DNA of 64,000 nt from assembly GCA_045535455.1 (NCBI GenBank), contig JAZSLQ010000125.1, positions 1,894 through 65,893 on the forward strand, read 5' to 3'. Each line of letters begins with the position of its first letter. The stretch's first letter is position 1. Origin of the DNA: Kiritimatiellia bacterium (GTDB taxonomy: Bacteria; Verrucomicrobiota; Kiritimatiellia; RFP12; UBA1067). Below the pieces are notes generated by a model that saw nothing but the letters and a program-made list of their open reading frames with translations, did no database searches and was not told the origin of the DNA. A program made the translations under genes and the position numbers. Below are positions 18,453 through 64,000 of the stretch, in pieces.

Positions 18453-18486
18453 TCATTGAAACAACATGGGAACACAGGAAAAGAAC

Positions 18487-23273: not shown

Positions 23274-26200
23274 ATGAAAAAAATGAAGATGCTGATCGCA
23301 GGGTTTGTGCTGGCGCTCGCTGGCATGGCAACTGCGGCTATGGATACGGTGCTGACCTTTTCAACGGTTGGCCCAGACAGGTATGCCGACGGCGAAGACG
23401 TCGTTGACGGCGAGTGTTATGCGCTCGTCTGGACGTCTGATGTGGCTGGCTTTACCTTGTCAGACGACGGCACGGCTACTGGCGGGAAGGTTGTTCTTGT
23501 CGCACCTGTCGCCGAAGGCAGGCGCTGCCCGCCGGTTAAGCTGAACATCAAGGCGTCCGTCGCCCCTCAGTACGAGGGTGGCGTCTGGGGAGTGTACCTT
23601 CTCGACACGCGTGAATCTCCCGAAGGCGAGCGTGTAATTAGCGGAGTCAAGCTCATTCCCGATGCGACGGTTGATGTCGCGAGCGAGGGCTATCTTGTCC
23701 ATACGACCATGAAGTCGAAGGCGCTGCTCGGCGCTTCCGCCGGCGTGGTTGATGCCGAGAGCCTGGTCGCTGCGGTTGCCGCTGGTGGTGAGGTAACGGT
23801 CGCGGCCGATATCACGCTCAATGACGAGCTGGTTGTCGAAAAGGAAGTGACGCTTAATCTTGGAGAGTACAAGATCACTGCGGCGAACGGCAAGAACGCG
23901 ATTCAGGTCGCGGCCGGCGGAAACCTCACGATCAATGCGGAGTCGACGGGCGGTGTTTCGGCGTCCAACGCGCTGGCTGTCTATGCCGACTACGAGCTTT
24001 CGCCCGGCGTGAAGACGATCACGATCAATGGTGGCGTATTCGACGGTGCGCTGCAGTTCAACAAGTATCCGCTCCACACCTCTGAAGTGCAGTCCGGCGA
24101 GGCGGCTGTTCCGACGACGGTTGTTGTCGGTGGCGGTACGTTCAAAGGCCGCGTGAGCATTTACCACTGCCCGTTCACTGTGAATGGCGGTACGTTTGAG
24201 CAGGGCCTTGACACGTCTGACGGTAGCGTTACGGTCTATGCCAACTACAAGTGTCCGGTCACGTTCAACGGCGGTAGCTTCAAGGTCAGGCCGACGCCTG
24301 CAGGTTCGCGCGTTGTCGTCAATGGTGGCGTGTACTACGAGGGTGGTTACTTCAAGGTTGGCGACACAGCCGACTGCCAGGCGACGCGCAATGGCACATA
24401 CTATGCTTCGCTCGCCGAGGCGTTCCAGGACATCGGGCCTGGCACTGTGATCACCGTTCTTGGCGGTGATGAGGCGTCTATCTCTGTCGAGCTTGAACCC
24501 GGCCAGTCGCTGACGGTCCCGTCTACGTTCGCGGGTGCGATAGCGGGCAAGGGTGGTGCTGAACTTGTTGTCACGTATGTGGATGGCACAGCCATCTACA
24601 TGGTAAAGGCGGAGGGCGTGGCGCGTATTGGTGCGCAGTACTACGCCACGCTTCAGGCGGCGTTTGACGCAAGCAAGACCAATGACGTCATTACGCTTCT
24701 TGCCGATGACACGCTTGCGTTCACCTCGCTTGACCGTGCAATCACGCTTGACCTTAACGGCCACAACGTGACGGTGACGGGCGGTGCGGCGGACCTCTCC
24801 AATGGTGCGCTCACCATTGTCGGTAGTGGCCACATGACGGGCTTCGTCGAGCCTTCCGCTGGAAAGGTGAACCTTGTCCTCAAGGGCGGTACATACGGGT
24901 TCGATCCGTCTAAGTACGCTCCGTACGTCATTGAGGCGCTTCCGAACGAGCAGGATCCGGTAGACTGGAGCAATGATCGTCACTATGTGTTCAAGGATTA
25001 TGCGCTTGGCGTCTATGGCGGTTTCCCTTATTGGGCACCAGAAAAGGGCGTGTGGACGGTTGTTCCCGTGCCGAAGGCTTACGTGTCGGCCTATCCTACG
25101 AAGGAAGTCGGCATTGGCGACCCGCTCGACGCCGCTTATTCGTTCGGTGCGTTCAACGCCAACAATGGCGGTGCCAGCTATTGTTCTGACCGCGAAGTTG
25201 CCGACAAGGTTATTACAGGCGACGGAATGCTCAACCTCAACGCACTGACAGATCCGGAGGAGATCACCCGCGCTCTGGCGGTGCTGACCGAGGCGACGCC
25301 GTTCCTCGATTGGCACGCAGACTTCGCGGTGTCGTTCGACAAGCCAATCACGGCTGGTTCGCTCACGCTCGCCGGACAGTACAATGGTTGGTCGAGCAGC
25401 TGGGTATCGTATCCTGCGCCGGCTAATGTTGGAGCGAATGTGGTTCGCCGGCTCCTTGCGGACGAGGGCGGCGCTAGACCCTCCGACTGGCCGTATCAGC
25501 ATATCTGCACTAAGGTGAAAGACTTCAACTGCGGTGCGCGCATGGACGATAGCTCCATCATCGGGACGACGATGAAGGTCCAGCTCAGGCTCTACAAGCC
25601 GGACGGCGACGAGGGCACTGGTTCGCCGTCGATTCTCATCTGCGAGTACAAGTACACGTTCGGCGGCAAGGCGGCACGGATCGAGGACACATTCTACGAT
25701 TCGATTGACGAGGCCATTGCCGAAGTTCAGTCCAACGACGTCGTGGTCGTCCTCAACGACTACACTGGCGCGGTCGATATCAACAACTGCGACAAGCCGT
25801 TCACGGTCAACAGGAATGGCTTCGTGCTTGGAGTGACCGAAACGAACAACATCAATAAGGCAAAGGGCACCGATTGGCACTTCGACAGAATGAGCAACGG
25901 CAGCTGGAGCTACTACAACAAGCCGGCGCCTCCGTCCGAGGATGTGGCTGTCGTCATGGTCGAAGTCGTCGACGATGCGGGTGAGTCTATGTCACTCTCG
26001 GCGCTCACTCCTGATGCGGAGTGGCTGGACAAGAAGACGCAGGAAGGCGAGACGGCCGAGCAGGCTCTTGCCAAGGTCGAGGAGAACGGCAACCAGGCAT
26101 GGCAGAACTACGTGATCGGACAAGATCCGAGCGCGGCAGTCCGTGTCAACACCGCGCAGGCGGATATTGATAAAACACCTGTCGATAACACGCTTACCGA

Positions 26201-27098
26201 AAAGGTGAATGTGCCTACCAATTCCGGCTTCAAGGTGTCGTACGCCATCGACAAGATTGAAGCAGACGGAACGGTTAAAGAGGGTACTCCTCAGGCTTCG
26301 GCAGAAAACTTTACTGTCGATCTTGAGAATGCGACAGACAACGAATCCGGAGTCGCCTACTTCAAGATGACTGCGATCATCGAGGCCGAAGACGGCACTG
26401 GTGCGAAGACCAAGGTTACGTCCGAGAACACCCTCGGCGTCCTGAAGGTTGATGCAACCACTAAGAACACGCCGGTTGCAGTTCCGTGGTCGTCTCTCGC
26501 CGACGACAAGGACATTACCGTCGATCAGCTTGTTCGCACGGCGACGCTCACTCCTGGCGACACGATGACGGCCTACGACAACGAAACGGGCAAGTATAAT
26601 GCCTGGGAGCTGCAGGATAACGGCACGTGGAAGACGGTGCAGTCCGCTGGCGGAGCGGAAACGCAAGATGCTTCTGAGTTTTCGGTTCCTCGCGGCGCGG
26701 CCGTGTGGGTGACGCGTCAGGATCCCACTCAGCCGCTTTACCTTGTAGGCGAGGTGGCGGAGAAGGCGGCCGAGACGCAACTTGAGCCAGCTCCTTCCGA
26801 AGAGAAGAAGTCATGGAATCTCGTTGCGTCTCCTTCGGTAGAGCCTGCCAAAGTTGAAGACATTCTTGCCGGCAACGAGGACTTCGATGTCATCATGGTT
26901 CCGACCGACGCAGCCCCTAAGGTCTACATCTACCGCGATGGCAAGTGGGGCTACGAGACCACCGAAGAGGTTATCAGGGGGGGCCAAGTGGTTGGTGTCA
27001 GGTCAGTGTTCAAGACGGATGACACCGAGATTCCCGCAGGTGTCGGCTTCTGGTACCTCAATGGAAGTACCGATGGCAACAAGACTGTTGAATGGTAA
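23274..27098 (+). CDS. giant secreted surface protein 2 (1274 aa) with a beta-helix and the same conserved C-terminal domain
   Basis: Signal peptide present. Beta-helix repeats such as GGVFDGALQFNKYPLHT and GGTFKGRVSIYHCPF. The C-terminal blocks SWNLVASP and GFWYLN are shared with giant protein 1. Confidence 0.7.
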   Translation: MKKMKMLIAGFVLALAGMATAAMDTVLTFSTVGPDRYADGEDVVDGECYALVWTSDVAGFTLSDDGTATGGKVVLVAPVAEGRRCPPVKLNIKASVAPQYEGGVWGVYLLDTRESPEGERVISGVKLIPDATVDVASEGYLVHTTMKSKALLGASAGVVDAESLVAAVAAGGEVTVAADITLNDELVVEKEVTLNLGEYKITAANGKNAIQVAAGGNLTINAESTGGVSASNALAVYADYELSPGVKTITINGGVFDGALQFNKYPLHTSEVQSGEAAVPTTVVVGGGTFKGRVSIYHCPFTVNGGTFEQGLDTSDGSVTVYANYKCPVTFNGGSFKVRPTPAGSRVVVNGGVYYEGGYFKVGDTADCQATRNGTYYASLAEAFQDIGPGTVITVLGGDEASISVELEPGQSLTVPSTFAGAIAGKGGAELVVTYVDGTAIYMVKAEGVARIGAQYYATLQAAFDASKTNDVITLLADDTLAFTSLDRAITLDLNGHNVTVTGGAADLSNGALTIVGSGHMTGFVEPSAGKVNLVLKGGTYGFDPSKYAPYVIEALPNEQDPVDWSNDRHYVFKDYALGVYGGFPYWAPEKGVWTVVPVPKAYVSAYPTKEVGIGDPLDAAYSFGAFNANNGGASYCSDREVADKVITGDGMLNLNALTDPEEITRALAVLTEATPFLDWHADFAVSFDKPITAGSLTLAGQYNGWSSSWVSYPAPANVGANVVRRLLADEGGARPSDWPYQHICTKVKDFNCGARMDDSSIIGTTMKVQLRLYKPDGDEGTGSPSILICEYKYTFGGKAARIEDTFYDSIDEAIAEVQSNDVVVVLNDYTGAVDINNCDKPFTVNRNGFVLGVTETNNINKAKGTDWHFDRMSNGSWSYYNKPAPPSEDVAVVMVEVVDDAGESMSLSALTPDAEWLDKKTQEGETAEQALAKVEENGNQAWQNYVIGQDPSAAVRVNTAQADIDKTPVDNTLTEKVNVPTNSGFKVSYAIDKIEADGTVKEGTPQASAENFTVDLENATDNESGVAYFKMTAIIEAEDGTGAKTKVTSENTLGVLKVDATTKNTPVAVPWSSLADDKDITVDQLVRTATLTPGDTMTAYDNETGKYNAWELQDNGTWKTVQSAGGAETQDASEFSVPRGAAVWVTRQDPTQPLYLVGEVAEKAAETQLEPAPSEEKKSWNLVASPSVEPAKVEDILAGNEDFDVIMVPTDAAPKVYIYRDGKWGYETTEEVIRGGQVVGVRSVFKTDDTEIPAGVGFWYLNGSTDGNKTVEW

Positions 27099-51350: not shown

Positions 51351-52484
51351 CTATGCTTCCCGTTTCCCTTCCTTTGCCGACTGGCGGCGGTATTCGCGCA
51401 TGGTCATGCCGGTTCGCTTCAGGAAGAACCGCTTTGCGTATCCGTCCGATTCGTATCCGCTGCGCTCCACCACCATCGCGATGGGAAGTGTGCTGCTCGA
51501 CAGGAGTTCGCGCATTTTCTGTAGACGTATTTCATGGATTTCGTCTAGGATTGAACGGCCCGTTTCCTTTCTGAACCGGCTTGTCGCAAGCGCGCGCGAG
51601 CAGTTCATTTCGGCGGCGATGGCGTCAATGGAAAGTCCTGGCTCGCAGGCGTGGCGCCTGATGAACTCGCGCGCACGGCGCACACGTGCGCTGACTCCCG
51701 GAGTTGTGTCCGTGGAGCCGCGACGCACGATGCGCAGCGGGCCATAGTATTCGGTGCGTACGCTTGTGCCGTTGTCGATTTCCTCCGCGAGCATCTGGGC
51801 CATGCGCCATCCGGCGCCCTCGAAGTCGGGTTCGACGCTCGTGATGCCGGGTTTCACGGCCTCGCAGTACGCCTCGTCGTTGTCGATTCCGACGATGCGC
51901 ACTTCATCGGGCACTGAAAGCCCCACCTTTGTCGCTGCGTTATATGCCTCCATGGCGCAATAGTCGTTCGCACCGAGTATGCCACACGGTTTAGGCAAAT
52001 CCCTTAGTGTCTCTTCGAGAGACGCGAGCGCCAACGTGACAAGCGTCTGCCCGGCAGCGGCAGTATCGGACTTGAAGCGTTTAAAGCGCGCCTTGTCCCA
52101 GTGAATGCCCTTGCCTGTGCCGAGGTAGGCGTAGGATTTGCATTTGCACCTCAGGAGGTCCTTGACGGCCAATGCCGCGGAAGCGGCGGAATCGTGCAGA
52201 AGGCACGGATGTTCCTTCGACGGCATCTCGGGGTTCTGGTCGAGGTATATGGTCGGGATTCCCCTGAAGACGTTGTCGGGCGCGCTCGCCGTGCGCATTG
52301 CGCGATCCACAAGACAGCCGATGGGAGCCCATGTTTTCAGTGCTCGGCGGATATCCGAGGTGGTCGCGAATCGCTCCACGACCTGCACGAACCAGTCGCG
52401 CTCCTGTGCAAAGCGGTGGACGCCCGAGAGCTTCTGTAGCCAGCTCTTACGTGTTGTGGACTGGAAGAAAAGTACTGTTTTCAT
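51351..52484 (-). CDS. AraC/XylR-family transcriptional regulator with an N-terminal periplasmic-binding-protein-like sugar-sensing domain
   Basis: The C-terminal AraC HTH pair (GLSIDAIAAEMNCSRALATSRFRKETG...MREYR) and an N-terminal LacI/PBP-like fold. Divergent from the DUF5107/TPR gene. Confidence 0.8.
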   Translation of the reverse strand: MKTVLFFQSTTRKSWLQKLSGVHRFAQERDWFVQVVERFATTSDIRRALKTWAPIGCLVDRAMRTASAPDNVFRGIPTIYLDQNPEMPSKEHPCLLHDSAASAALAVKDLLRCKCKSYAYLGTGKGIHWDKARFKRFKSDTAAAGQTLVTLALASLEETLRDLPKPCGILGANDYCAMEAYNAATKVGLSVPDEVRIVGIDNDEAYCEAVKPGITSVEPDFEGAGWRMAQMLAEEIDNGTSVRTEYYGPLRIVRRGSTDTTPGVSARVRRAREFIRRHACEPGLSIDAIAAEMNCSRALATSRFRKETGRSILDEIHEIRLQKMRELLSSSTLPIAMVVERSGYESDGYAKRFFLKRTGMTMREYRRQSAKEGKREA

Positions 52485-52508
52485 TGTGAGTATAGCATAT
52501 CATAATCC

Positions 52509-52538
52509 TGTCCGATTGACTATGTTTTATTTGTCCTA
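52509..52538 (+). promoter_or_regulatory. conserved 30-bp cis-element TGTCCGATTGACTATGTTTTATTTGTCCTA, a candidate AraC/XylR operator
   Basis: A near-identical copy is at 58569-58598. It contains TGTCC half-sites 22 bp apart and sits about 30 bp upstream of the -10 element. Confidence 0.5.
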
Positions 52539-52564
52539 TGGGATAACACATCGAGCAGGCGTCT

Positions 52565-52573
52565 TGGTACAAT
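52565..52573 (+). promoter_or_regulatory. extended -10 promoter TGGTACAAT, near-leaderless
   Basis: Located 12 nt upstream of the ATG at 52585. Confidence 0.4.
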
Positions 52574-52584
52574 TATGGCCAGAT

Positions 52585-55500
52585 ATGAAAGCGAAGAACA
52601 GTCTGATAATTGCGATCCTTGCATCATCCGCTTTGGCATCCGCCTACGCTGGCGAGGTGTTGATGAACGAAGACACGATCGTCCTTCCGACGTATGCGCC
52701 CGGCGGATACGACAAGACGCCGCTTTTCTATACCGGGCGCGTCTACCAGGGCGCGCAGGGGCGCGTCTACCCGTATCCGATGCAGGACGTCCTGCACGAC
52801 GAGAAGTTCGACGAGACGTACAAGTACCTGACGCTCGAGAACGACTGGCTCCAGATGGGGCTTCTACCCGAGCACGGCGGGCACCTCCTCAACTTCACCG
52901 ACAAGGCGACCGGATTCGAGACGTTCTACCGCCAGCATGTCATAAAGCCCGCGCTCATCGGAATGCTCGGCGCGTGGATATCCGGCGGCGTCGAATGGAA
53001 CTTCCCGCACCACCACCGCGCGACGACGGCGATGCCCATCGACTGGCGAGCGGTCGAGAACGCGGACGGATCGAAGACGATCTGGATCGGCGAGACAGAG
53101 CTCAGGCGCCGCCTCAAGTGGACGATAGGTCTTTCGCTCCTCCCCGACCGCGCCGTGTTGAAAGCGGAGAACGTCTTCATGAACCGCCAGCCGTGGATCG
53201 AGTCGATGATCTACTGGGCAAACGTGTCCGTCCACTGTGGCGACGACTACCAGATTCTCTTTCCGCCTTCGATGCACCTCGGCTTCGACCACCACAAGAA
53301 CTACTGGACGAGCTTCCCGATCGGACCGAGGAAGGAGGAAGTCGAGCTCCTTCCGTCGCAACGCTCGAAATACGCGAACGACATCTCCGGCACGATGGAC
53401 CTCAGCTGGTGGAAGAACTTCACCATTGAATCGCGCTCCATCTTCGGCATGGATCCCGACAACTCCTTCATGGCCGGATACGACCACAAGAAACAGTGCG
53501 GTACGGCGCACGTCTCGAACAGGCACATCACCGTCGGCAAGAAGTTCTTCCTCTGGGGCAACTTCCCCGAGGCGCACGTGTGGGACAAGGTGCTTACGGA
53601 CAATGACGGACCGTATCTCGAGCTGATGGTCGGATGCTGGTCCGACAACCAGCCCGACTATTCGTGGATAGCGCCCTACGAGACGCGCAAGGTCGAGCAG
53701 TTCTGGTTCCCGGTGAAGGGGATTGGCGGCATCAAGAACGTGACGATTGACGGTGCGGTGAACGTCGACCGCCTTTCGGATGACAAGATGCTAGTCGGTT
53801 TCCACTCAACGCGCGTGCTAAAGGGGTGTACGATTACTCTCTTCAAGGATCGCGAGGCGGTCTTCGCCGAGAAGGGCGTCGCCATTGATCCGAATAGACC
53901 ATGGTGCAAGACTGTCGCCGTCGAGAATGGTGTTGCCGATCAGCGTTACACGGCTACAATCGCCGATGCTTCAGGCAAGGTATTCCTCTCCTACACGCCC
54001 GTTCCGCCGCAGGGAGACGTGGAACTGCCGCCGAAGGTGGAGAATCCGAAAGAGCCGAAGGAATACACGAGCGCCGAGCTCGCCTACGAGGTCGGTCTTC
54101 GCCTCGATCAGTTCCAGAACGGGCTCATCGATCCCGAGCCATACTACAAGAGGGCGCTCGAGATTGACCCAGACTATTCGAAGCCGAATCTTGCGATGGG
54201 CGTACGGCTGGCGAAGAACGGAAGCTACGTCGAGGCGAAGCCGTATCTAGAGAGGGCAGTTGCGCGCGCAACGCAGAACCACACGCGTGCGCTCGACGCC
54301 GCGCCGGAGTACTACCTCGCGCTCGTGGAGCGATATCTCGGCAACCTGAAGCGAGCGGAAGACCTCTTCTGGCGCTGCACCTGGCGGCTTACGCACAAGA
54401 AGGAGTCGTATGTCGAACTTGCCAGAATTGCCGCGCTCAAGGGCGACTGGACTGAGGCGCTTGCGCGAATTGACGATGCGCTTACGCTTGGGTCTGACGA
54501 GGCAAAGCTCTGGACGATGAAGGGGATATTCCTTCGGAAGTTGAAAGTTGAAAGTGAAAAGTGTAAAGTTGGGGATTCATACGGCAACTCTAAACTTTCA
54601 ACTTTAAACTTTAAACTTGCGCTCGACAGAGCGCAACAGTGCGATCCGCTGGAATATTGGGCGGTCGTGGAGCGCGACGGTTTTGCCGCGGCCGAGAAGA
54701 ATCGCGGGCTCAAGGCGCAGCAGCTTCTGGAGTGCATCAGTGACTACTGGGGAATCGGCTGCTATGACGAGGTGATCGCGCTCTGCGACGCCGCGCTTGC
54801 GAAAGCCGCCACAGAGAAGCCCTACGCTACCGAGGGCGCGCTTCCGCTCAAGGACACCATCGCCGCGTGCGACAGCTACAAGAACGCGCTCTTCGGCTAC
54901 TTCAAAGGAGCGGCGATTGAAAAGTTGAAAGTTGAAAGTGAAAAGTGTAAAGTTGAAAGGAGTGTCGACAGCAACTTTAAACTTTCCACTTTAAACTTTA
55001 AACTCGCGCAAGCGGCGTTTGCCGCCGCTGCCGCGATGCCGACGGACTACTGCTTCCCGAACCGGCTCGAAGAGGAAGAGGTTCTGAAGATCGCAGCGGT
55101 CGCCGCGCCCGAACTCGCGAACACATGGTACTACCTCGGATGCTGCGAGTGGAACCATGACCGCAAGGACGCGGGACTCTCCGACTGGAAGAAGTGCGTA
55201 GAGCTGATGCCGGAGCACGCGCTCGCTTTGCGCTGCATCGGCTTCGCTCTTTCGCATCCCGGGACGTACTTCACGAACACCGGTATTCCGTCCGGCGTGC
55301 CGAGCAAGGAAGCATACGAATACTACCTCAAGTCGCTTGCCGCCGATCCCGGCAACTTCCGCACGCTCGACGAGGCGGGCAAGCTCGCGGAGAAGCTGAA
55401 GCTCCCGGCGGCGGAACGCCTTGCGCTGATGGAGAAATATCGCGCGACGGTCGACAAGTACGATCCGTGCATTCTGCGATATGCCTACACCTTGAACGCA

Positions 55501-56127
55501 GTCGGGCGTTTCGCCGAGGCGCACGAGATACTCACAACGCGCCGCTTCCACGTATGGGAAGGAGCGGACGGACTTCTCGCGCCATTCGTCGAGTCCTGCA
55601 TCGGCCTCGGGCTCAAGGCTATGGAGGACGGCAGGGCGCTCTCGACGAGAGCGCCGGACGGCGGTTTCATCGAAACCGCCCTACCGGATGCGGCTGCCGG
55701 GAAATACCGTCTCGCTTTGGCGTATTTCGAGGAGTCGACGACTTATCCCGAAAACCTCCAGGCGGGGCGTCCGGGCGACGCAGGCACCGAGCCGAAGAGC
55801 CGCTACTTCATGGCTCAGTGCAAGAAGGCGCTGGGCGACGAGGCGGGATACCGCGCGGAGCTCGAAAACTCCCTCAAGGGATGGATCCATGCGGGCGAGA
55901 TGGACTACTGGCGCGTCAAGGCCCTGCGCGAACTCGGACGAGACGCCGAGACCGCTCCTCTCATCGCGGAAATGAAACAGGCGATAAAGGAGCTTGAGAC
56001 GCCGCAGCCCGTCGTCATCAACGCATACGCGAAGTTCGCGGGCGACAATTCTGCGATGGAGCGCGCGGCCAAGGCCCGCGAAAAGGCCGGCTTCCTCCGT
56101 TCGCTCCTCTCCGAGATCGACAGGTAG
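52585..56127 (+). CDS. large exported protein with a DUF5107-like N-terminal domain and C-terminal TPR repeats, carrying two in-frame hairpin-repeat insertions
   Basis: Signal peptide MKAKNSLIIAILASSALASAYA. The conserved N-terminal 500 aa or so is followed by TPR-like helical repeats. The low-complexity KLKVESEKCKV...KLSTLNFKL segments appear twice. Confidence 0.65.
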   Translation: MKAKNSLIIAILASSALASAYAGEVLMNEDTIVLPTYAPGGYDKTPLFYTGRVYQGAQGRVYPYPMQDVLHDEKFDETYKYLTLENDWLQMGLLPEHGGHLLNFTDKATGFETFYRQHVIKPALIGMLGAWISGGVEWNFPHHHRATTAMPIDWRAVENADGSKTIWIGETELRRRLKWTIGLSLLPDRAVLKAENVFMNRQPWIESMIYWANVSVHCGDDYQILFPPSMHLGFDHHKNYWTSFPIGPRKEEVELLPSQRSKYANDISGTMDLSWWKNFTIESRSIFGMDPDNSFMAGYDHKKQCGTAHVSNRHITVGKKFFLWGNFPEAHVWDKVLTDNDGPYLELMVGCWSDNQPDYSWIAPYETRKVEQFWFPVKGIGGIKNVTIDGAVNVDRLSDDKMLVGFHSTRVLKGCTITLFKDREAVFAEKGVAIDPNRPWCKTVAVENGVADQRYTATIADASGKVFLSYTPVPPQGDVELPPKVENPKEPKEYTSAELAYEVGLRLDQFQNGLIDPEPYYKRALEIDPDYSKPNLAMGVRLAKNGSYVEAKPYLERAVARATQNHTRALDAAPEYYLALVERYLGNLKRAEDLFWRCTWRLTHKKESYVELARIAALKGDWTEALARIDDALTLGSDEAKLWTMKGIFLRKLKVESEKCKVGDSYGNSKLSTLNFKLALDRAQQCDPLEYWAVVERDGFAAAEKNRGLKAQQLLECISDYWGIGCYDEVIALCDAALAKAATEKPYATEGALPLKDTIAACDSYKNALFGYFKGAAIEKLKVESEKCKVERSVDSNFKLSTLNFKLAQAAFAAAAAMPTDYCFPNRLEEEEVLKIAAVAAPELANTWYYLGCCEWNHDRKDAGLSDWKKCVELMPEHALALRCIGFALSHPGTYFTNTGIPSGVPSKEAYEYYLKSLAADPGNFRTLDEAGKLAEKLKLPAAERLALMEKYRATVDKYDPCILRYAYTLNAVGRFAEAHEILTTRRFHVWEGADGLLAPFVESCIGLGLKAMEDGRALSTRAPDGGFIETALPDAAAGKYRLALAYFEESTTYPENLQAGRPGDAGTEPKSRYFMAQCKKALGDEAGYRAELENSLKGWIHAGEMDYWRVKALRELGRDAETAPLIAEMKQAIKELETPQPVVINAYAKFAGDNSAMERAAKAREKAGFLRSLLSEIDR
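54541..54619 (+). repeat. inverted pair of heptamer arrays (GAAAGTT-type arm, 16-nt spacer, AACTTTM-type arm), a hairpin-forming element inside a CDS
   Basis: tgaaagt tgaaagt gaaaagt gtaaagt then the spacer, then aactcta aactttc aacttta aacttta aacttgc. Confidence 0.9.
54918..55007 (+). repeat. second inverted pair of heptamer arrays inside the same CDS
   Basis: Six forward units (tgaaaag ttgaaag ...) then a 13-nt spacer, then five reverse units (aacttta aactttc ...). Confidence 0.9.
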
Positions 56128-56320
56128 CTCGTCGGATTATAGTACCATGCTCGCCGCTTGCGGAGAGTGTGACGCCTTTTTGGCTACATGGCTGAAGCAG
56201 TCCTGGGCACAAGGGTCGTATGTTCGCATATTTGTGCCCGAACTTATTGGTGAAACGGGCACAAGTTTTGATTTGTTGTAAAGTTGTGCCCATTTACTAT
56301 TGACCAAATGCACAATTAAA

Positions 56321-56329
56321 TGATATAAT
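56321..56329 (+). promoter_or_regulatory. extended -10 promoter TGATATAAT
   Basis: Located upstream of the ATPase gene, with a GGAG at 56332-56335. Confidence 0.4.
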
Positions 56330-56339
56330 TTGCCCAAAA

Positions 56340-57785
56340 TTGGAGATAATTATGTTTGTGGGACGATTAGAAGAGCTTGATCTGCTAAAAGGACTTTGGA
56401 ATAAAGTCACAAAAACCTCGTTAGTGACGGTTAGAGGGCGAAGGCGCATTGGGAAATCGACTCTTGTTGCGCACTTTGCTGATGTCTCGAATGCACGATT
56501 TCTTAAGATTGAAGGGCTTTCGCCACGAACGGCCAAGTCGAACGCAGACCAGTTAAAGGGCTTTTATTCGCAGCTTCAGCTTCAAAGCGGAAAGACATAC
56601 GAAGTCGTTGACTGGCTTAAAGCGTTCAAGGACGTCGACGCAGAGATTGTTGACGGACAGCGGACGGTTCTTCTTTTGGACGAGATATCGTGGATGGCGT
56701 ATTACGATGCCTCTTTCCCGGGGCTTCTGAAGATTGCCTGGGATAATTTCTTTCACAAGCACCCCAATCTGATTTTGTTTCTGTGCGGGAGCGTCTCAAG
56801 TTGGATAAGGGAGAACATACTTGAGGACGGAGGTTTTCTTGGAAGGCCCTCTGCCGACATTGTGCTGAAGGAGCTTTCCGCAAGGGACTGTCTGTCTTTC
56901 TGGGGTGGTGCGGCGAAGCGCCTTTCGTCTCGTGAACTCTTCGACATGCTTTCCGTCTGCGGTGGGGTGCCGCGATATCTTGAGGAGATAGATCCGTCGC
57001 TGACCGTCGATGAATCGCTGCGTAGGTCGTGCTTTACGCCGCAGGGATACCTTTTCAGGGACTTCGACCTGATGTTCGACGAACTGTACGACAAAAGTTC
57101 GGCTGAAAGAAAGTCCGTGCTTAACGCGCTGGCGAAGAAACCGATGACTGTCAGCGAGGTTGCCGCAGCGACAGGGCGTAGTCGTAACGGACATCTTGTG
57201 GAACTTCTGAAGGATCTTGTCCAGGCAGGATTCCTCGCTCAGGAGCGCGGAATCAATCCACAAACTGGGGAGTTGCGCCAGGAAACGCGGTATCGGATAT
57301 GCGACAACTACGTGCGGTTCTATCTTCATGCCATCTTGCCGCGAAGGGCAATGATAGAGGACGGCACATATCGCTTTGAGTCATTGGAGCGACTGCCCGG
57401 ATGGGAGACGATATTGGGATTCCAGTTTGAGAATCTTGTGCTCGGTTCGTTGCCAGCGCTTGTCGCGAGGCTTCATCTCGACAGGTCGAGAATCCTCTCG
57501 ATGGCCCCATACCGCAGAACCTCGGCCGACAAGGATCGCGGTTGCCAGATAGACTGCCTTATACAGACGCGGCGGTCGATGTATGTCGTCGAGATAAAGC
57601 GGAAGGCGAATATAGGAACGGAGATAATTGACGAAGTCGAAAATAAGATTGACCGACTTGGATATTCGGGCAAAACGTCCGTAAGGCCGGTTCTTGTCTA
57701 TGACGGCAACCTTTCTCCGATGGTTGAGGAAGACGGATATTTCGCGGCGATCATTCCCGCTTCAGAATTGTTCGGACTTGACTAA
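56340..57785 (+). CDS. AAA+ ATP-binding protein (archaeal-ATPase/DUF234-type) in a lower-GC islet
   Basis: Walker A GRRRIGKST and Walker B LLLDEISW. Protein is 481 aa. The local base composition is visibly AT-richer. Confidence 0.7.
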   Translation: MEIIMFVGRLEELDLLKGLWNKVTKTSLVTVRGRRRIGKSTLVAHFADVSNARFLKIEGLSPRTAKSNADQLKGFYSQLQLQSGKTYEVVDWLKAFKDVDAEIVDGQRTVLLLDEISWMAYYDASFPGLLKIAWDNFFHKHPNLILFLCGSVSSWIRENILEDGGFLGRPSADIVLKELSARDCLSFWGGAAKRLSSRELFDMLSVCGGVPRYLEEIDPSLTVDESLRRSCFTPQGYLFRDFDLMFDELYDKSSAERKSVLNALAKKPMTVSEVAAATGRSRNGHLVELLKDLVQAGFLAQERGINPQTGELRQETRYRICDNYVRFYLHAILPRRAMIEDGTYRFESLERLPGWETILGFQFENLVLGSLPALVARLHLDRSRILSMAPYRRTSADKDRGCQIDCLIQTRRSMYVVEIKRKANIGTEIIDEVENKIDRLGYSGKTSVRPVLVYDGNLSPMVEEDGYFAAIIPASELFGLD

Positions 57786-57810
57786 CTGCCGGGAGGACCT
57801 ATCTGCGTTG

Positions 57811-58503
57811 ATGAAAATACGAAGTGGCAGAACAATTCCATGGCGGGTTGGCTGGGAGTCAATAAAGGCGAACTGGCTGCCGATGGTCGTCTTGTGGCTG
57901 CTTGCAGCGGCGTTGGTTGCGGGCTATACATACGTGCCCTGCGTTCGGGCGGCGCTGCAGCCCGTCTTCGATTTCCAGACCGGCGGAGGGTGGAAGGCGG
58001 CGGTCCTTAACAGAATCGTCTTCTGCGGACTTCTCCCCGGAGCGTTTCTGCTGACGATAAGATCGATACGACCGCCGCGTCCTCTGCTTACGGTGCTCGC
58101 CAACTGCGTGTGGATGGGGGCGTGGGGCGTTGCGAGCAATGCGTTCTTCACGCTCCAGACGCAGATGTTCGGCTCGGGGCACGACATCGCGACTCTTGTC
58201 GCAAAGGTGCTTGTCGACAAGTGCGTGTGGTCTGCGCTCCTGTGCGTTCCGCTCAACTCCGTGTTCTTCTTCTGGGAGGGGCGAGACTTCTCCCTCGCGA
58301 GGTGCCGTGCGGAATGGCCGCGCAGCTATCTGCGGCAGATATACCTCCCGATTCTTCTCGCCGATTTCTCCGTCTGGATTCCGGTGCAGTTCGCAGTGTA
58401 CATCTTTCCTCTGCCGCTCCAGATACAGCTTGTCGGCTTCGCCGGCGCATTCTGGTCCCTCGTCGGTCTCTCGTCTGGCATCCGCCTCGCACGTAGTGTG
58501 TGA
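57811..58503 (+). CDS. hypothetical integral membrane protein with about six TM segments
   Basis: The start at the internal ATG follows the ATPase stop. The protein is hydrophobic throughout. Confidence 0.45.
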   Translation: MKIRSGRTIPWRVGWESIKANWLPMVVLWLLAAALVAGYTYVPCVRAALQPVFDFQTGGGWKAAVLNRIVFCGLLPGAFLLTIRSIRPPRPLLTVLANCVWMGAWGVASNAFFTLQTQMFGSGHDIATLVAKVLVDKCVWSALLCVPLNSVFFFWEGRDFSLARCRAEWPRSYLRQIYLPILLADFSVWIPVQFAVYIFPLPLQIQLVGFAGAFWSLVGLSSGIRLARSV

Positions 58504-58568
58504 TGACATCTCGTCATGCATCGGAGGCGCAGATGCTTGCGGCGAGGTGATAGGCGGATGGGTCGTTG

Positions 58569-58598
58569 TGTCCGATAGGATATGTTTTACTTGTCCTA
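58569..58598 (+). promoter_or_regulatory. second copy of the conserved 30-bp cis-element (TGTCCGATAGGATATGTTTTACTTGTCCTA)
   Basis: 26 of 30 nt are identical to 52509-52538. Located 25 bp upstream of a -10 element. Confidence 0.5.
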
Positions 58599-58622
58599 AC
58601 GAATAGCTTTGGGGGGCTGGAA

Positions 58623-58633
58623 TGTGGTAAGAT
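58623..58633 (+). promoter_or_regulatory. extended -10-like element TGTGGTAAGAT
   Basis: Located upstream of the small ORF at 58674. Confidence 0.3.
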
Positions 58634-58673
58634 ATTGTGCGTCAGGCATGAAAATAAGAAATGTCCAAATAAC

Positions 58674-58895
58674 ATGAAAAAACTGATGATGATTGGTGGT
58701 GCGGTTGTCGCGATTCTCTCGATTGAGGCGAAGGCTTCGACGGTCGCATACTGGCCGCTTACGCAAGCGAACGGAGTGCGAACGACCTCATCCACCGTCT
58801 TCGCCAATGAGGGCGACAACTCGGCGATGGAGCGTGCGGCCAAGGCGCGCGAAAAGGCAGGCTTCCTCCGCACCCTCCTCGCAGAACTCGAGTAA
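58674..58895 (+). CDS. small secreted protein (74 aa). Its N-terminus resembles the LamG protein leader and its C-terminus resembles the DUF5107/TPR protein C-terminus. Possibly a remnant.
   Basis: ASTVAYWP is shared with the 60441-62096 protein. GDNSAMERAAKAREKAGFLR(T/S)LL is shared with residues 1300-1329 of the 52585-56127 protein, at about 85 percent nucleotide identity. Confidence 0.45.
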   Translation: MKKLMMIGGAVVAILSIEAKASTVAYWPLTQANGVRTTSSTVFANEGDNSAMERAAKAREKAGFLRTLLAELE

Positions 58896-58912
58896 CATAA
58901 AGGACAACGCGC

Positions 58913-60394
58913 ATGGGAAAATTGCTTGGACATATATCAAGTGCGGCGGCCTGCGCGGCGGCGATGCCGGCACTGGCGTTTTCCGCGATGGTGATGCCGC
59001 TTCTGCCAAAGCCGGCCGAGTGTCGCTTCACCGGAGGAACGTGCCGCAACGCGGCGGTAAAGACGGTGCTCGACAAGTCGATACCGCCGCAGGGGTATGC
59101 GCTTACCGTCGCGCCGGGCGCAATAACGATCAAATCGTCGGACGAGGCGGGCGCTTTCTACGCGCGCATGACGCTCCGCCAGCTGGAGACGAAAGACGCG
59201 AAGGGGAAGAACGTTTCGTATCCAAATTGCGAGATAAAGGACGCGCCGGCGTTCAAGTGGCGCGGCATGATGCTGGACGAAGCGCGGCACTTCTTCGGCA
59301 AGGAGGCGGTCTGCGGCATTCTCGAACGCATGGCGCAATACAAACTCAACGTCTTCCACTGGCATCTTACGGACGACCAGGGCTGGCGCATCGACATACC
59401 GGAACTCCCGGAGCTGGCGAGGAAGGGCTCATGGCGCGAAGGACGCTGCGAAAGCGAGACCCCGCTTTTCTACACGGAGAAGGATATAAAGGAGATTCTC
59501 GACTTCGCGAAGGCCCGCTACATAACCGTCGTGCCGGAAATCGATTTCCCCGGACACTTCGGCGCGGCGCTCCGGGCGTATCCGCATCTGGCTTGCGGAA
59601 CGGGCAGAAAGAATATCTTGTGTCTGGGGAATCCCGAGGCGGTCCGCTTGGCGGAAAAGGTTCTCGACAGAGTGTGCGAACTGTTCCCCGGCGAAGTCGT
59701 CCATATCGGCGGCGACGAGTGCCCGGTGGCGAACTGGGCGAAGTGTCCGAAATGCAAGGCTCTCATGGAGCGCGAGAGAATCGGAGACCTGAAGGGTCTG
59801 CAGCCGTGGCTCACGCGCCGCCTGGCCGCGCATCTCAAGAAGAAGGGCAAGCGGATGTCGGGATGGGAGGAGATTGCGGTCGGCCTGGGCAAGCTCGACA
59901 AATGGGGCGAGAGCGAAAACCTGGCCTCACTGCCCGACGAGTATCTGCCGCCGAAGTCTTCGCTCGTCATGGGCTACCATGCGCGCCCCGCGGCGCTCGC
60001 CGCGAATACCGGCTTCGACGTCGTCAGCTGCCCGACCTGGCATTGCTACTTCGACTACCAGCAGAAGCTGCCCGAAGATCCCCATCGCTACCACCGCCCG
60101 GACATAAGGTGGTGCCCGCTCGAATCCGTTTACAACTTCGATCCCTACGAAGGCGTGAATCCCCAGGCGCGCGGGCGCATCGCCGGCGTGGAATGCTGCA
60201 GCTGGACGGAGAAGACGCGCAACGTCACCGAACTCGAATGGAAAATCTGGCCGCGGACGCTGGCCTTCGCCGAAGTCGCATGGCGCAACGAAGAGCCGCA
60301 AAAGCGCGACTTCAAGGAGTTCTGCGAGCGTGCCGCCGCGCACCGCCGCCGCCTCGTCGCGGAGCACGTCAACTGCGCGCCTGTCGGGCGATAA
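58913..60394 (+). CDS. beta-N-acetylhexosaminidase, glycoside hydrolase family 20
   Basis: FKWRGMMLDEARHFF, NVFHWHLTDDQGWRIDI and VHIGGDE are the GH20 catalytic motifs. Confidence 0.88.
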   Translation: MGKLLGHISSAAACAAAMPALAFSAMVMPLLPKPAECRFTGGTCRNAAVKTVLDKSIPPQGYALTVAPGAITIKSSDEAGAFYARMTLRQLETKDAKGKNVSYPNCEIKDAPAFKWRGMMLDEARHFFGKEAVCGILERMAQYKLNVFHWHLTDDQGWRIDIPELPELARKGSWREGRCESETPLFYTEKDIKEILDFAKARYITVVPEIDFPGHFGAALRAYPHLACGTGRKNILCLGNPEAVRLAEKVLDRVCELFPGEVVHIGGDECPVANWAKCPKCKALMERERIGDLKGLQPWLTRRLAAHLKKKGKRMSGWEEIAVGLGKLDKWGESENLASLPDEYLPPKSSLVMGYHARPAALAANTGFDVVSCPTWHCYFDYQQKLPEDPHRYHRPDIRWCPLESVYNFDPYEGVNPQARGRIAGVECCSWTEKTRNVTELEWKIWPRTLAFAEVAWRNEEPQKRDFKEFCERAAAHRRRLVAEHVNCAPVGR

Positions 60395-60440
60395 AGAATT
60401 TTGGTTAAAGCCAATAACAAAACCATAAAGGAGAAGAACA

Positions 60441-62096
60441 ATGAAAAAGATGCTGATGAAAGCGGGATTGCTCGTGATATGCGCCCTGGGGGGTGGGGGA
60501 GGGATGGCCTCCACCGTCGCCTACTGGCCCATGGCCGGTGAAAACGGCGCGAGGATGCAGAAAGACGAAGTGATCCAGAACCTCGCCAATCCCGGCGTGA
60601 TGGACGCCGAAGCGGCTTATGTGCGAAGCTACTACGGGACGGTGAACGACACCTCGGCCACGCCCGTAGTCTGCTATCCGATGGGAACGAATGCGTTCCC
60701 GGAGGCATACGGCGTGTACGATCCGGCGGCGGGGGCGAACCGTGCGGCGGCGACGGGATTGGATTTCACGGCGCGGCACTTGAGCAGCAACTGGAACGGC
60801 GGCGGCAAATATTGCTGGTGGCAGGGGGTGCTGCGCGTCGAGGATCCGGATGCAATCAAGACGACGTCTTTCACAATAGAATTTTTCTTCCGTCCGGAGG
60901 AGACTTCGTCCGGGCTTTGGCAGTATCTTGCGGCGATGCCGATGAGGAATGTTGCAAACGGAAGCACTGGAACGGAGAGCTGGTCGATAGGGATCAACAA
61001 TACCAAGCAGATTTTCGCAGTGTTCGGCATGGTGGACGAGAGCGGTGCGCAGACGGGGCGCGAAACATTCAAGTCTATCGCGTTGCCGCAGATATACGAC
61101 GGGCGGTGGCATCATTTCGCGATGACGGTTGACGGCACGGCGATGAAGATGTATGTCGATTATGCATTGGCGGGGAACGGAACGCTGCCGCGAAACGTCC
61201 AATACAAGGACGACGGCGATCTGTTCATCGGCGGGACGACGCACGCGGTGTATTCGTATTATGGTTCGATGGCGCATTTCAGGATTTCGGACGAGGCGCT
61301 GGCGAGCGAGGAGTTTCTGCATTTCACGCAGACGGCGCGGTCCGAAGGGGAGGCTGCGGACGTGGCGTTGCACATAGACTTCGAGGAGGTGGAGGGGATT
61401 TCGACGAACAAGGTGTTTTTCAACAAGGCGGCGTACGGTGCGGCGGTGCATTTCGGCGCGACGAACAGCACTGCCAGCGCGGCTGCCGCCGGTCTCGACA
61501 CGGATGTGGCGGCGGGGAGGCTCTACCATTCGCACCGGGACGCGGGGGGATACGCGAACCGTGTTTCTCTGGACCACGGCGCCACCGAGGGCGGCGATCC
61601 GCACATTTCGTGGAAGCCCGGCGAAGACGTGTTTCTGGGAGGTTCGTTCACGTTCGAGATGTTCCTCAAGGCGACGGCGATCAAGGCGTGGTCGGTCGTT
61701 GCGAAGCGGCGCACGGAGGCGAGCGACAGCGACACGCAGTTCTGGATGGGCGCGAACGGCACGGCGAACGCTTTGAACTTCGGTTTTGCATCGTCGCGAT
61801 TCGGCGACAATGCGGTGGTGGACGGCGAATGGCACCACGTCGCGCTGGTGTACGACGCGGAGACGAAGAAGATGACGTACTATCGCGACCGGAAGCAGGT
61901 GGGCGAAAAGACCGCGACGGCCGGCGAGCTTGCGAAGTATTCGGTCACGAAGCCGTTGTATCTTCTTGGCGGGCAGACCGGCGGGGATGGGACGGTGTGC
62001 AAGATCGACGAAGTGCGGCTGACGAAGCGGGCGCTTTCGCCGAGGGAGTTTCTTTCGGCGGAGGGGTTGAAAGGGTTCATGATCATCTTCAAATGA
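60441..62096 (+). CDS. secreted protein with two LamG/concanavalin-A-like lectin domains
   Basis: Signal peptide present. DGRWHHFAMTVDGTAMKMYVD and DGEWHHVALVYDAETKKMTYYRD are LamG/pentraxin-like core motifs. Confidence 0.75.
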   Translation: MKKMLMKAGLLVICALGGGGGMASTVAYWPMAGENGARMQKDEVIQNLANPGVMDAEAAYVRSYYGTVNDTSATPVVCYPMGTNAFPEAYGVYDPAAGANRAAATGLDFTARHLSSNWNGGGKYCWWQGVLRVEDPDAIKTTSFTIEFFFRPEETSSGLWQYLAAMPMRNVANGSTGTESWSIGINNTKQIFAVFGMVDESGAQTGRETFKSIALPQIYDGRWHHFAMTVDGTAMKMYVDYALAGNGTLPRNVQYKDDGDLFIGGTTHAVYSYYGSMAHFRISDEALASEEFLHFTQTARSEGEAADVALHIDFEEVEGISTNKVFFNKAAYGAAVHFGATNSTASAAAAGLDTDVAAGRLYHSHRDAGGYANRVSLDHGATEGGDPHISWKPGEDVFLGGSFTFEMFLKATAIKAWSVVAKRRTEASDSDTQFWMGANGTANALNFGFASSRFGDNAVVDGEWHHVALVYDAETKKMTYYRDRKQVGEKTATAGELAKYSVTKPLYLLGGQTGGDGTVCKIDEVRLTKRALSPREFLSAEGLKGFMIIFK

Positions 62097-62122
62097 TGGA
62101 AGAAGGATGCTGAAAGGAGAAT

Positions 62123-64000
62123 ATGTTTAGAGTGCAGGGAGCGCAGGGAAGGCGCGGAGTTCCACAGGGTCCGTCTTCACGGGGTTTGCAGAGGTTTTGC
62201 GTTTTTTTGCGGGGCTTCTGCGGGTTCCTTGTTCCGAACATGTTTTCCATTGCGGCGGCGGGGGGGCTCGAGGAGGGGTTTCGCTCGCCGCCGCCGGGTG
62301 CGCGGCCGCAGGTGGTGTACACGATAATGAACGGCAACGCGACGAAGGAAGGGTTGACGCTGGACTTCGAGGCGATGGCGGAGGCGGGGATCGGGGGTAT
62401 GCAGATATTCGACGTCGGGTGCGACGTGCCGGCGGGGGCGCTGGAGTTCAACACTCCGGAATGGTTCGATTTGATGCGGCACGCGCATTGCGAGGCGAAG
62501 AGGCTGGGGCTTGCGATGGGGGTGGCGAACTGTTCGGGGTGGTCGGCGTCCGGGGGCCCTTGGGTGAAGCCGGAGGACGCGATGAAGGTGGTCGTAGCCG
62601 CCGAAACCTCAGTGAAAGGCCCGTCGCGCTTTTCCGGAGCCCTTGCGCGCACGAAGAATGACAACGGCTTTTACGAGGACATAGCCGTCCTCGCATACCC
62701 GACGCCGGAGAAAGGCGCGTGGATCGCGGACTTGCCGGCGAAGTGCGGCAAGGTCCGCAAAACAGGATTCAAACGCCAGCCGAAGGCGTTCGCGCCGGAA
62801 GAGGTCGTGGCGAAAGATGCGATACGCGACCTTTCCGGGCGCATGGCGCCGGACGGGACGCTTGACTGGGACGTGCCGGAAGGGGATTGGACCATTCTGC
62901 GCGTCGGGTTCGTCTGCAACGGGAAGAAGAACCATCCGGCGTCGAAGAACGGATGGGGGTTGGAGGTGGACAAGTTTTCGGAGGGGGCGCTTGGGAGGCA
63001 TTTCGAGGGGTACGCGGGGAGGCTTTGCCGGGAGCTTGGGGTAAGCGCGGCGACGGACAACCGGACGGGTTTGGGGAACGTGCATGTGGATTCGTGGGAA
63101 GTCGGATGCCAGAATTGGACGCGTGGGCTGGAGGGGGAGTTCGAGAAGCGCGCGGGGTATCCGATAACGCCGTATCTGCCGGTCTTCGCAGGGCGCGTCG
63201 TCGGGTCGGTCGAAGAGACGGAGCGGTTCCTCGCATCGTTCCGGCGCGTGCTGGCGGAGCTTTTCGAGGAGCGGCATGTCCGTGCGCTGGCGCGGCTCTG
63301 CCATGAAAACGGTTTGACGCTTTCGGCGGAGCCGTACGGCAACAGCAATGCGGACAACATCGCCTTTGCGCGGGAGCTGGACGAGCCGATGGGATGCTTC
63401 TGGGCGAAGGGGACGTGCGGGAGCGGATGGGATTTCGACAACACGCACGCGGTGGCGGCGGTGGCGCGCGTTTTGGGGAAGCGGATAGTGGCGGTGGAGG
63501 CGTGCACGTCGGGCCCGCCCGGCGGGGGGCGGTGGCTGGAGACGCCGTATTCGGTGAAAGCGGATTGCGACCGTTCGTTCGCGGCGGGGGGCAACAGGTT
63601 TTGTTTCCACCGCTACGCGCACCAGCCGTGGACCGCTCCGCCGCGTATGCCGGGGATGACGATGGGACGCTGGGGGATGCATCTCGAACGGACGCAGACC
63701 TGGTGGCCGTACGCGAAGGGGTTTTTCGAGTACGTCGCGCGGTGCCAGTGGATGCTGCAGGAAGGGAAGGGGGCGGCGGACGTATTGTACTGGTGCGGCG
63801 ACGCCTCCCCGAACGACGGCACGGCGAAAGTTTCGCTCCCTGCCGGCTTCGACTACGACATTTGCGATACGAAGGCGCTGGAGGCGATGCGTTGCGCGGG
63901 CGGCCGCCTCGTCGCGCCAAGCGGCGCGGAATATCGTCTGCTCGTGCTGCCGAAGGGGGCGCGGCGTCCCGCCGCCTGCAAGGAAGACTGGCCGTGCGCG
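62123..64000 (+). CDS. glycoside hydrolase, 3' truncated by the window edge, possibly GH106-like
   Basis: A frame with no stop runs from the ATG at 62123 to the window end. The ORF track did not list it because it has no stop. ARPQVVYTIMNGNATKEGLTLDFEAMAEAGIGGMQIFDVG resembles the N-terminal block of GH106-type hydrolases. A GGAG Shine-Dalgarno is present. Confidence 0.55.
   Translation, partial: MFRVQGAQGRRGVPQGPSSRGLQRFCVFLRGFCGFLVPNMFSIAAAGGLEEGFRSPPPGARPQVVYTIMNGNATKEGLTLDFEAMAEAGIGGMQIFDVGCDVPAGALEFNTPEWFDLMRHAHCEAKRLGLAMGVANCSGWSASGGPWVKPEDAMKVVVAAETSVKGPSRFSGALARTKNDNGFYEDIAVLAYPTPEKGAWIADLPAKCGKVRKTGFKRQPKAFAPEEVVAKDAIRDLSGRMAPDGTLDWDVPEGDWTILRVGFVCNGKKNHPASKNGWGLEVDKFSEGALGRHFEGYAGRLCRELGVSAATDNRTGLGNVHVDSWEVGCQNWTRGLEGEFEKRAGYPITPYLPVFAGRVVGSVEETERFLASFRRVLAELFEERHVRALARLCHENGLTLSAEPYGNSNADNIAFARELDEPMGCFWAKGTCGSGWDFDNTHAVAAVARVLGKRIVAVEACTSGPPGGGRWLETPYSVKADCDRSFAAGGNRFCFHRYAHQPWTAPPRMPGMTMGRWGMHLERTQTWWPYAKGFFEYVARCQWMLQEGKGAADVLYWCGDASPNDGTAKVSLPAGFDYDICDTKALEAMRCAGGRLVAPSGAEYRLLVLPKGARRPAACKEDWPCA

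Follow-up and report, generated by a model that had tools for sequence, protein, structure and literature searches.

A small open reading frame between two glycan-utilization loci of a Kiritimatiellia bacterium is very probably a chimeric remnant of recombination

Gene content of the region around the small ORF

A small ORF is found on the plus strand near the right end of the 64,000-nt stretch of DNA analyzed here (the window), which appears to derive from a metagenome-type assembly; judging from the nearest relatives, the host lineage belongs to the rumen/gut-type Kiritimatiellae. A preliminary description had placed the ORF at 58674-58895, where an ATG (58674) and a TAA (58893-58895) are indeed present, and its 73 codons encode MKKLMMIGGAVVAILSIEAKASTVAYWPLTQANGVRTTSSTVFANEGDNSAMERAAKAREKAGFLRTLLAELE. 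Table 1 shows the ORF together with its neighbors, which are referred to below as locus a (upstream) and locus b (downstream).

Table 1. Coordinates of the small ORF and neighboring features in the window
Feature	Position	Strand	Evidence or remark
Peripla_BP_3 + AraC-HTH hybrid regulator, divergent from DUF5107a	51351..52484	-	Pfam; arrangement also in L026
DUF5107a, full-length DUF5107/TPR gene, 1,180 aa; paralogue/allele of the gene proposed as deleted	52585..56127	+	Pfam DUF5107 E 5.4e-51, and TPR
DUF5107a 3' end, copy matching the small-ORF tail at 85%	56040..56120	+	
1.7-kb lower-GC insertion between DUF5107a and X	56141..57836	+	holds ATPase_2/AAA+HTH gene 56340-57785
Gene X, Mpv17/PMP22-like membrane protein, last intact locus-a gene	57814..58503	+	GC3, homologues
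Operator-like 30-nt motif, TGTCCGATAGGATATGTTTTACTTGTCCTA / TGTCCGATnGnnTATGTTTTAnTTGTCCTA	58569..58598	+	upstream of small ORF; second copy 52509-52538 upstream of DUF5107a
Small ORF, 5' part (codons 1-46)	58674..58811	+	signal peptide MKKLMMIGGAVVAILSIEAKA and LamG-family first strand STVAYWPLTQANGVRTTSSTVFANE
Small ORF, 3' part	58812..58895	+	last 27 codons and stop of the GH20-adjacent DUF5107/TPR gene (DUF5107b)
17-nt spacer TAACATAAAGGACAACGCGCATG with AAGGA, before GH20 start codon	58896..58912	+	identical in relatives
GH20 beta-N-acetylhexosaminidase, first intact gene of locus b	58913..60394	+	Pfam Glyco_hydro_20 E 1.7e-92
LamG protein, paralogue of the donor of the small-ORF 5' end	60441..62096	+	Pfam Laminin_G_3 E 1.5e-37; syntenic in L019

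The upstream genes are collinear with contig L026, which carries the minus-strand regulator, a DUF5107 gene, gene X and the operator-like motif and is about 90-93% identical to window positions 51353-56140 and 57837-58605; a JGI contig, L031, matches positions 55882-58629 at 95.7%. This part of the window, as far as the promoter region of the small ORF, is therefore assigned to locus a. The homologue of X that follows the DUF5107 gene in L026 (P0135) is 93% identical, and together with the third-position GC (0.70-0.84) it favors the plus-strand reading of X; a 220-aa minus-strand ORF at 57859-58521 was rejected as spurious. The gene after X varies among strains, being GH16-like in L014 and a 596-aa gene followed by GH16 in L030. 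An intact LamG-family gene of locus a was not found downstream of X in L026 (which ends before that point), L030 (a different gene) or L027 (a different context), and none of the recovered contigs carries loci a and b side by side.

DUF5107a ends in RSLLSEIDR and a stop codon, as do its counterparts in L026 and L017, while the L030 gene ends in RALLSEIDR. A literature search on DUF5107 returned nothing relevant, and the PDB holds only an uncharacterized "TPR-domain containing protein" (5cd6). The product read from the ATG at 52585 is absent from a collection of 15 billion proteins in which neighbors on the same contig are present; a different start codon may have been annotated in the source record, or the gene may be classed there as a pseudogene. 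Two AT-rich palindromic elements of ~85 nt (54538-54619 and 54922-55006) lie in frame inside DUF5107a, with arms AAGTTGAAAGTTGAAAGTGAAAAGTGTAAAGTTG and CAACTTTAAACTTTC(A/C)ACTTTAAACTTTAAACT and the translation KLKVESEKCKV...KLSTLNFKLA. One 34-nt arm is the same in both copies (100% identity) and occurs nowhere else in the window, and the element resembles MITE/RPE elements inserted in frame in coding sequence. At or near these and other variable DUF5107 sites, relatives carry different short repetitive inserts (for example SPTHNSPTHN in L019 and NPVNPVNPV in L030). Elsewhere in the window, two very large ORFs at 18466-22737 (1,423 aa) and 23274-27098 (1,274 aa) have no Pfam match at E<=1e-5.

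The insertion between DUF5107a and X has a GC content of ~0.50 vs 0.60, and the Pfam matches of its ATPase gene fall below the curated cut-offs. L031 carries it (at 95.7%); it is missing from L026, L030, and L014. It splits the promoter of X (GGATTATGATATAAT in L026 and L030) and replaces the first codons of that gene. Palindromes of the form GGGCACAA...TTGTGCCC are located at about 56205-56300, upstream of the ATPase gene.

Downstream of the small ORF, the GH20 product has relatives in rumen/gut-type metagenome assemblies (P0006, 95% identical; P0007, 89%). Seven contigs (L019-L025) encode a GH20 product 89-95% identical to that of the window, and in all of them a DUF5107/TPR gene is located directly upstream of GH20. 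This upstream ORF reaches the contig edge (at least 1,062 aa in L020) and is seen as a long ORF in L019-L023, L024 and L025 being too short to hold more than its 3' end; the L020 gene shows 85.7% aa identity to DUF5107a. Window positions 58812-64000 are collinear with positions 1318-6508 of L019 at 95.8% nt identity, through the DUF5107b 3' end, GH20, LamG, GH106 and further genes. A GH20 scan of genome contigs returned only distant relatives (<=48% identity) in Kiritimatiellae MAGs, with no informative synteny.

Parentage of the small ORF and its upstream signals

The 3' part of the small ORF is the end of the GH20-linked DUF5107 gene. In the relatives, the gene upstream of GH20 ends in ...AYAKFAGDNSAMERAAKAREKAGFLRTLLAELE and a stop codon (GDNSAMERAAKAREKAGFLRTLLAELE and VINAYAKFAGDNSAMERAAKAREKAGFLRTLLAELE, each followed by the stop), which is exactly the tail of the small ORF; both share the ending RTLLAELE, instead of the RSLLSEIDR found in the full-length DUF5107a of the window. 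The last 84 nt of the ORF are identical to L020, L021, and L019 at 82 positions, and both differences are synonymous. Alignment of the window with L020 and L019 shows no difference in the stop codon, the 17-nt spacer or the GH20 start, and no terminator-like site is present in the spacer. The 60 nt upstream of the retained 84 nt are unrelated to the same three contigs (23-25% identity). In blastn comparisons the homology to L019-L025 begins abruptly at 58812, with the same start in all five relatives that reach further upstream (5/5). Since homology to L019 starts at 58812 and the preceding 60 nt are unrelated, the breakpoint is located at 58811/58812.

The 5' part resembles the N-termini of secreted Laminin_G_3 (PF13385) proteins of Kiritimatiellae and Verrucomicrobia, with which it shares the signal peptide and an ASTVAYWPL..NGVRTT..VF.N.G opening. 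Unlike these proteins, the 73-aa product has no LamG beta-sandwich, and only ~25 residues after the signal peptide are LamG-like. Codons 1-46 resemble the N-termini of a LamG subfamily (P0127, P0129, P0131, P0132, and P0134), and a closer relative than the LamG protein at 60441 lies outside the window: P0129, a 540-aa LamG-family protein with 26/48 identical residues (54%; pairwise E 1e-14; E 1.4e-5 against 1.84 billion proteins). N-termini of this subfamily natively continue as ...STVFANEG-SGGTMDA. Because the native sequence of the LamG relatives runs on from FANEG to SGGTMDA, the joint is placed directly after ANEG. At most a shared GGC codon can serve as microhomology at the joint, plus TTCGCC 6 nt upstream. 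No DNA counterpart of 58674-58811 was found in any fetched relative contig. The product as a whole has no Pfam match at E<=0.01 and no NCBIfam match; DUF5107 (PF17128) and TPR repeats are absent by both databases, only the last 27 of ~1,180 residues being kept, and the region has no Rfam match.

The preliminary description, made within the window, had likened the last 30 aa of the ORF to the end of DUF5107a at about 85% nucleotide identity and its N-terminus to that of the LamG protein at 60441. A blastn search of 58500-59000 against the window gave 85.2% identity over 81 nt (58811-58891 against 56040-56120; E 2.6e-21), so the level of identity is borne out, but the shared segment is 27 aa and not 30 aa long; 23/27 residues are identical (tblastn E 1.8e-11), and the codons differ by seven synonymous and four non-synonymous changes. 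The resemblance to the 60441 protein is likewise real (25/66 residues; pairwise BLASTP E 1e-8), and both similarities are well beyond chance. At the DNA level only 32 nt match (81% by blastn, around ASTVAYWP). At 38% identity, the 60441 gene is not the origin of the 5' part, which comes from another LamG-family paralogue.

The small ORF is unique among the sequences searched. It forms a singleton cluster on one 73,428-nt contig, and its GH20 and LamG neighbors belong to clusters of 26-27 members from many contigs. Look-ups by exact sequence of the ORF and of the window's GH20 gave no recorded contig. A word-indexed search of 5.8 billion proteins and an exhaustive HMMER search of 1.84 billion representatives did not find a second protein joining this head to this tail. 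The tail has just two places in the 64-kb window, 56041-56121 and 58812-58892, and in the database searches it was seen only on DUF5107-derived sequences; the suggestion that it is a tag carried by other proteins is not supported by these searches. In this respect it is unlike PEP-CTERM, T9SS CTD, and LPXTG-type signals, which occur on several unrelated proteins.

Other short metagenome proteins with this tail (P0002-P0005) arose by independent decay of DUF5107 genes, each with a different breakpoint. They are uninformative on preferential retention of the tail, since the query was the tail itself. Many independently decayed versions of locus a were seen in rumen/gut metagenomes, with DUF5107 cut to its last 50-75 codons: in L014 the remnant is fused in frame to a DUF1810-like N-terminus, in L015/L016 an out-of-frame signal peptide stands with two DUF5107 fragments, in L017 the remnant abuts a minus-strand gene, and in L018 it is flanked by the IS-like inverted repeats CAAAGTGGCAAACTCGGG. 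Frameshifted variants of gene X are also among them, and P0158/L030 and P0248 belong to this set.

Upstream of the small ORF, the 30-nt motif listed in Table 1 contains two TGTCC half-sites and had no match in 100 shuffles; its recurrence in front of both the small ORF and DUF5107a had escaped the preliminary description. At both sites a gap of 29 nt separates the motif from an extended -10-like element, TGgTAAGAT (58625-58633) and TGgTACAAT (52565-52573), respectively. The motif is conserved at the ends of L026 (8910-8939) and L031 (2690-2719), and L014 has a variant of it (about 1010-1040) ahead of its GH16 gene. A consensus promoter/terminator scan of 58450-58950 detected nothing, and the extended -10/operator reading is based on the paired motif and the identical spacing. 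The motif may be an operator with a regulatory role, and the adjacent AraC-type regulator is a candidate for binding it; it always stands 29 nt before an extended -10-like TGgTAnnAT and beside an AraC/Peripla_BP_3 hybrid regulator, and is a candidate marker of a regulon that would include these glycan loci. A 9-codon upstream ORF, ATGAAAATAAGAAATGTCCAAATAACATGA, is present at 58648-58677, and its stop overlaps the start codon of the small ORF (ATGA), possibly by chance.

At the RNA level, no Rfam family was found in 51-61 kb, and the predicted fold of 58811-58950 is not better than that of shuffles (z -0.54). The 315-nt leader plus ORF gave z -2.1, and the GH20 start is not sequestered. An RNA-level role of the retained 3' end was rejected, as it has no Rfam family, terminator or unusual structure.

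Proposed rearrangement and alternative explanations

The observations above make it very probable that the small ORF is a recombination joint, i.e., a chimeric gene remnant, and as a protein it presumably has no function. The preliminary description had offered a scar of deletion or recombination between duplicated loci as one of two explanations, and this is supported by the full-length DUF5107/TPR gene of the same C-terminus found directly upstream of GH20 in the relatives. It is proposed that the lineage has two related glycan-utilization loci, paralogous or allelic to each other. Locus a would have consisted of the AraC-type regulator, DUF5107a, X, and, behind a second regulated promoter, a LamG-family gene; locus b would have carried DUF5107b, GH20, LamG, GH106, and further genes. 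Through illegitimate recombination, the LamG-family gene of locus a would have been fused after its codon 46 to DUF5107b at codon -27, either by an intrachromosomal deletion between the loci or by homology-facilitated illegitimate import from another strain. The remainder of the former gene and about 1,150 codons of the latter would have been lost. The joint is in frame, by chance on this reading, and gives a signal peptide, ~25 LamG residues and the native last 27 residues and stop of DUF5107b. GH20-LamG-GH106 would now be placed directly behind a locus-a promoter with the operator-like motif, and translation of the leftover ORF would end at the native stop 17 nt before GH20, so that any translational coupling would be preserved. 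When DUF5107a was compared in 120-nt windows with the a-type L026 and the b-type L020, all three were about equidistant, and DUF5107a is a mosaic with no clean crossover. Deletion and imported recombination are not distinguishable for this reason.

A mis-join in the metagenome-assembled contig, bringing together two loci or two strains, would produce a similar structure. The ORF is indeed found on a single contig; the contigs L026 and L031 stop 45-70 nt short of it, and L020 begins inside a stretch where the DUF5107 paralogues are 99% identical. These contig ends indicate that the region is hard to assemble and strain-variable. The joint itself, however, does not fall within a shared repeat, its two sides share at most 3-6 nt, and it is clean and in frame. 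Exact runs in the 85% repeat do not exceed about 12 nt, and a k-mer-graph mis-join needs a long exact overlap. We therefore regard a chimeric assembly as quite improbable. The lack of an exact core (longest exact run about 12 nt) also weighs against another reading, in which a mobile island with a replacement 3' end entered one DUF5107 gene at its 3' end and left att-like 81-nt repeats at 56040 and 58811, as happens with integrative elements at the 3' ends of tRNAs or genes. Such an island would account for direct repeats 2.7 kb apart with a lower-GC ATPase gene between them, and for the downstream copy being the one that matches the GH20-linked gene of the relatives. But no integrase, transposase or recombinase domain was detected between the repeats by Pfam and NCBIfam searches. 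In L026, L030, and L014, which lack the GH20-linked remnant, gene X and the operator motif are native neighbors of DUF5107a; the ATPase segment (56141-57836) is a separate smaller insertion with its own boundaries, and the LamG-type leader abutting the downstream repeat would be left unaccounted for. With no recombinase, no exact core and intervening genes native to locus a, the att-duplication model was rejected as extremely unlikely.

The other explanation in the preliminary description, a functional mini-protein with a conserved C-terminal tag, would make the ORF a secreted peptide of ~52 aa (after cleavage between AKA and ST) that selection retains, perhaps for docking or as a competitor. 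The two parts form one uninterrupted reading frame, and a plausible signal peptide and a promoter-like region of its own are present, but the ORF is a singleton on one contig, no relative carries the same N-terminus on this tail, and close relatives have the full-length gene at its position. Two further points that might speak for a peptide have other sources: the 27-aa tail is invariant at the protein level across relatives, as selection on the full-length parent gene would leave it, and the other short ORFs with the same tail in metagenomes (P0002-P0005) arose by separate decay events, differ in breakpoint and partner, and were retrieved with the tail as query. A mini-protein under selection is thus very unlikely, and the tail being confined to DUF5107-derived sequences speaks against the tag. 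More remote than a leader function of the ORF is the idea that the secreted peptide, with its invariant C-terminal helix from DUF5107, is itself active.

Selection could also have acted on the fusion in a different way. The 27 retained codons show no non-synonymous change, against a neutral expectation of only about 1-2, and the prior for an in-frame joint is 1/3; relaxed selection since the deletion would be undetectable because the divergence is only about 5% over 81 nt. Selection on the intact ORF is therefore conceivable. In its strongest form, the in-frame fusion would have been selected as a promoter capture that put the GH20 operon under the AraC-type-regulated promoter of locus a, and the mini-ORF would be indispensable as a leader for coupling; if so, only deletions that keep translation going to the DUF5107b stop would preserve GH20-LamG-GH106 expression. 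We consider this improbable. For the recombination joint itself, the consequence of the rearrangement is likely regulatory rather than at the protein level, and the small ORF may at most be a translated leader through which GH20-LamG-GH106 comes under the promoter of locus a.

Relation to known systems and implications

The small ORF is comparable to chimeric pseudogenes arising from microhomology-mediated deletion: two unrelated parents are joined with few bases of microhomology, an intact parent is found at the same position in relatives, there is no complete domain, and the product is private to one lineage. It differs from them in that the joint is in frame and the native promoter, start, stop and spacing to the next gene are kept. 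The ORF could still be a translated leader for the GH20 operon for these reasons. Among recombination mechanisms, homology-facilitated illegitimate recombination, outlined in PMC3240628 as having one homologous and one illegitimate end, offers a possible route. DUF5107, about 88-99% identical between the loci, could be the homologous anchor, and the other side here would be the microhomology joint that left a stub of the recipient gene; unlike in that mechanism, no clean crossover is seen in DUF5107a.

Displaced 3' fragments are familiar from other polymorphic loci. Orphan C-terminal modules of Rhs/CDI systems are remnants of this type, and the T6SS effector/immunity arrays of Vibrio cholerae reportedly contain orphan 3' fragments left by displacement. 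The present locus is similar in that a full-length DUF5107a is followed downstream by the displaced 3' remnant of a related gene, marking past recombination. In contrast to those systems, there is no toxin/immunity logic, the remnant is 27 codons long and fused to the leader of a different gene, and the setting is that of glycan-degradation loci.

We concluded that the small ORF is an ordinary chimeric remnant of a rearrangement between two related polysaccharide-utilization loci and is not novel in kind; it poses no new mechanistic question. For annotation, the 73-aa "hypothetical protein" should be treated as what remains of a fusion at a structural rearrangement, and neither as a new family of small proteins nor as a sorting tag. 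The DUF5107/GH20/LamG glycan-utilization region of rumen-type Kiritimatiellae is a rearrangement hotspot, as indicated by recombination between paralogues, the 1.7-kb insertion with the ATPase gene and the several truncations that arose independently in other metagenomes. This bears on how the carbohydrate-degrading repertoire of uncultured Kiritimatiellae is inferred from MAGs.
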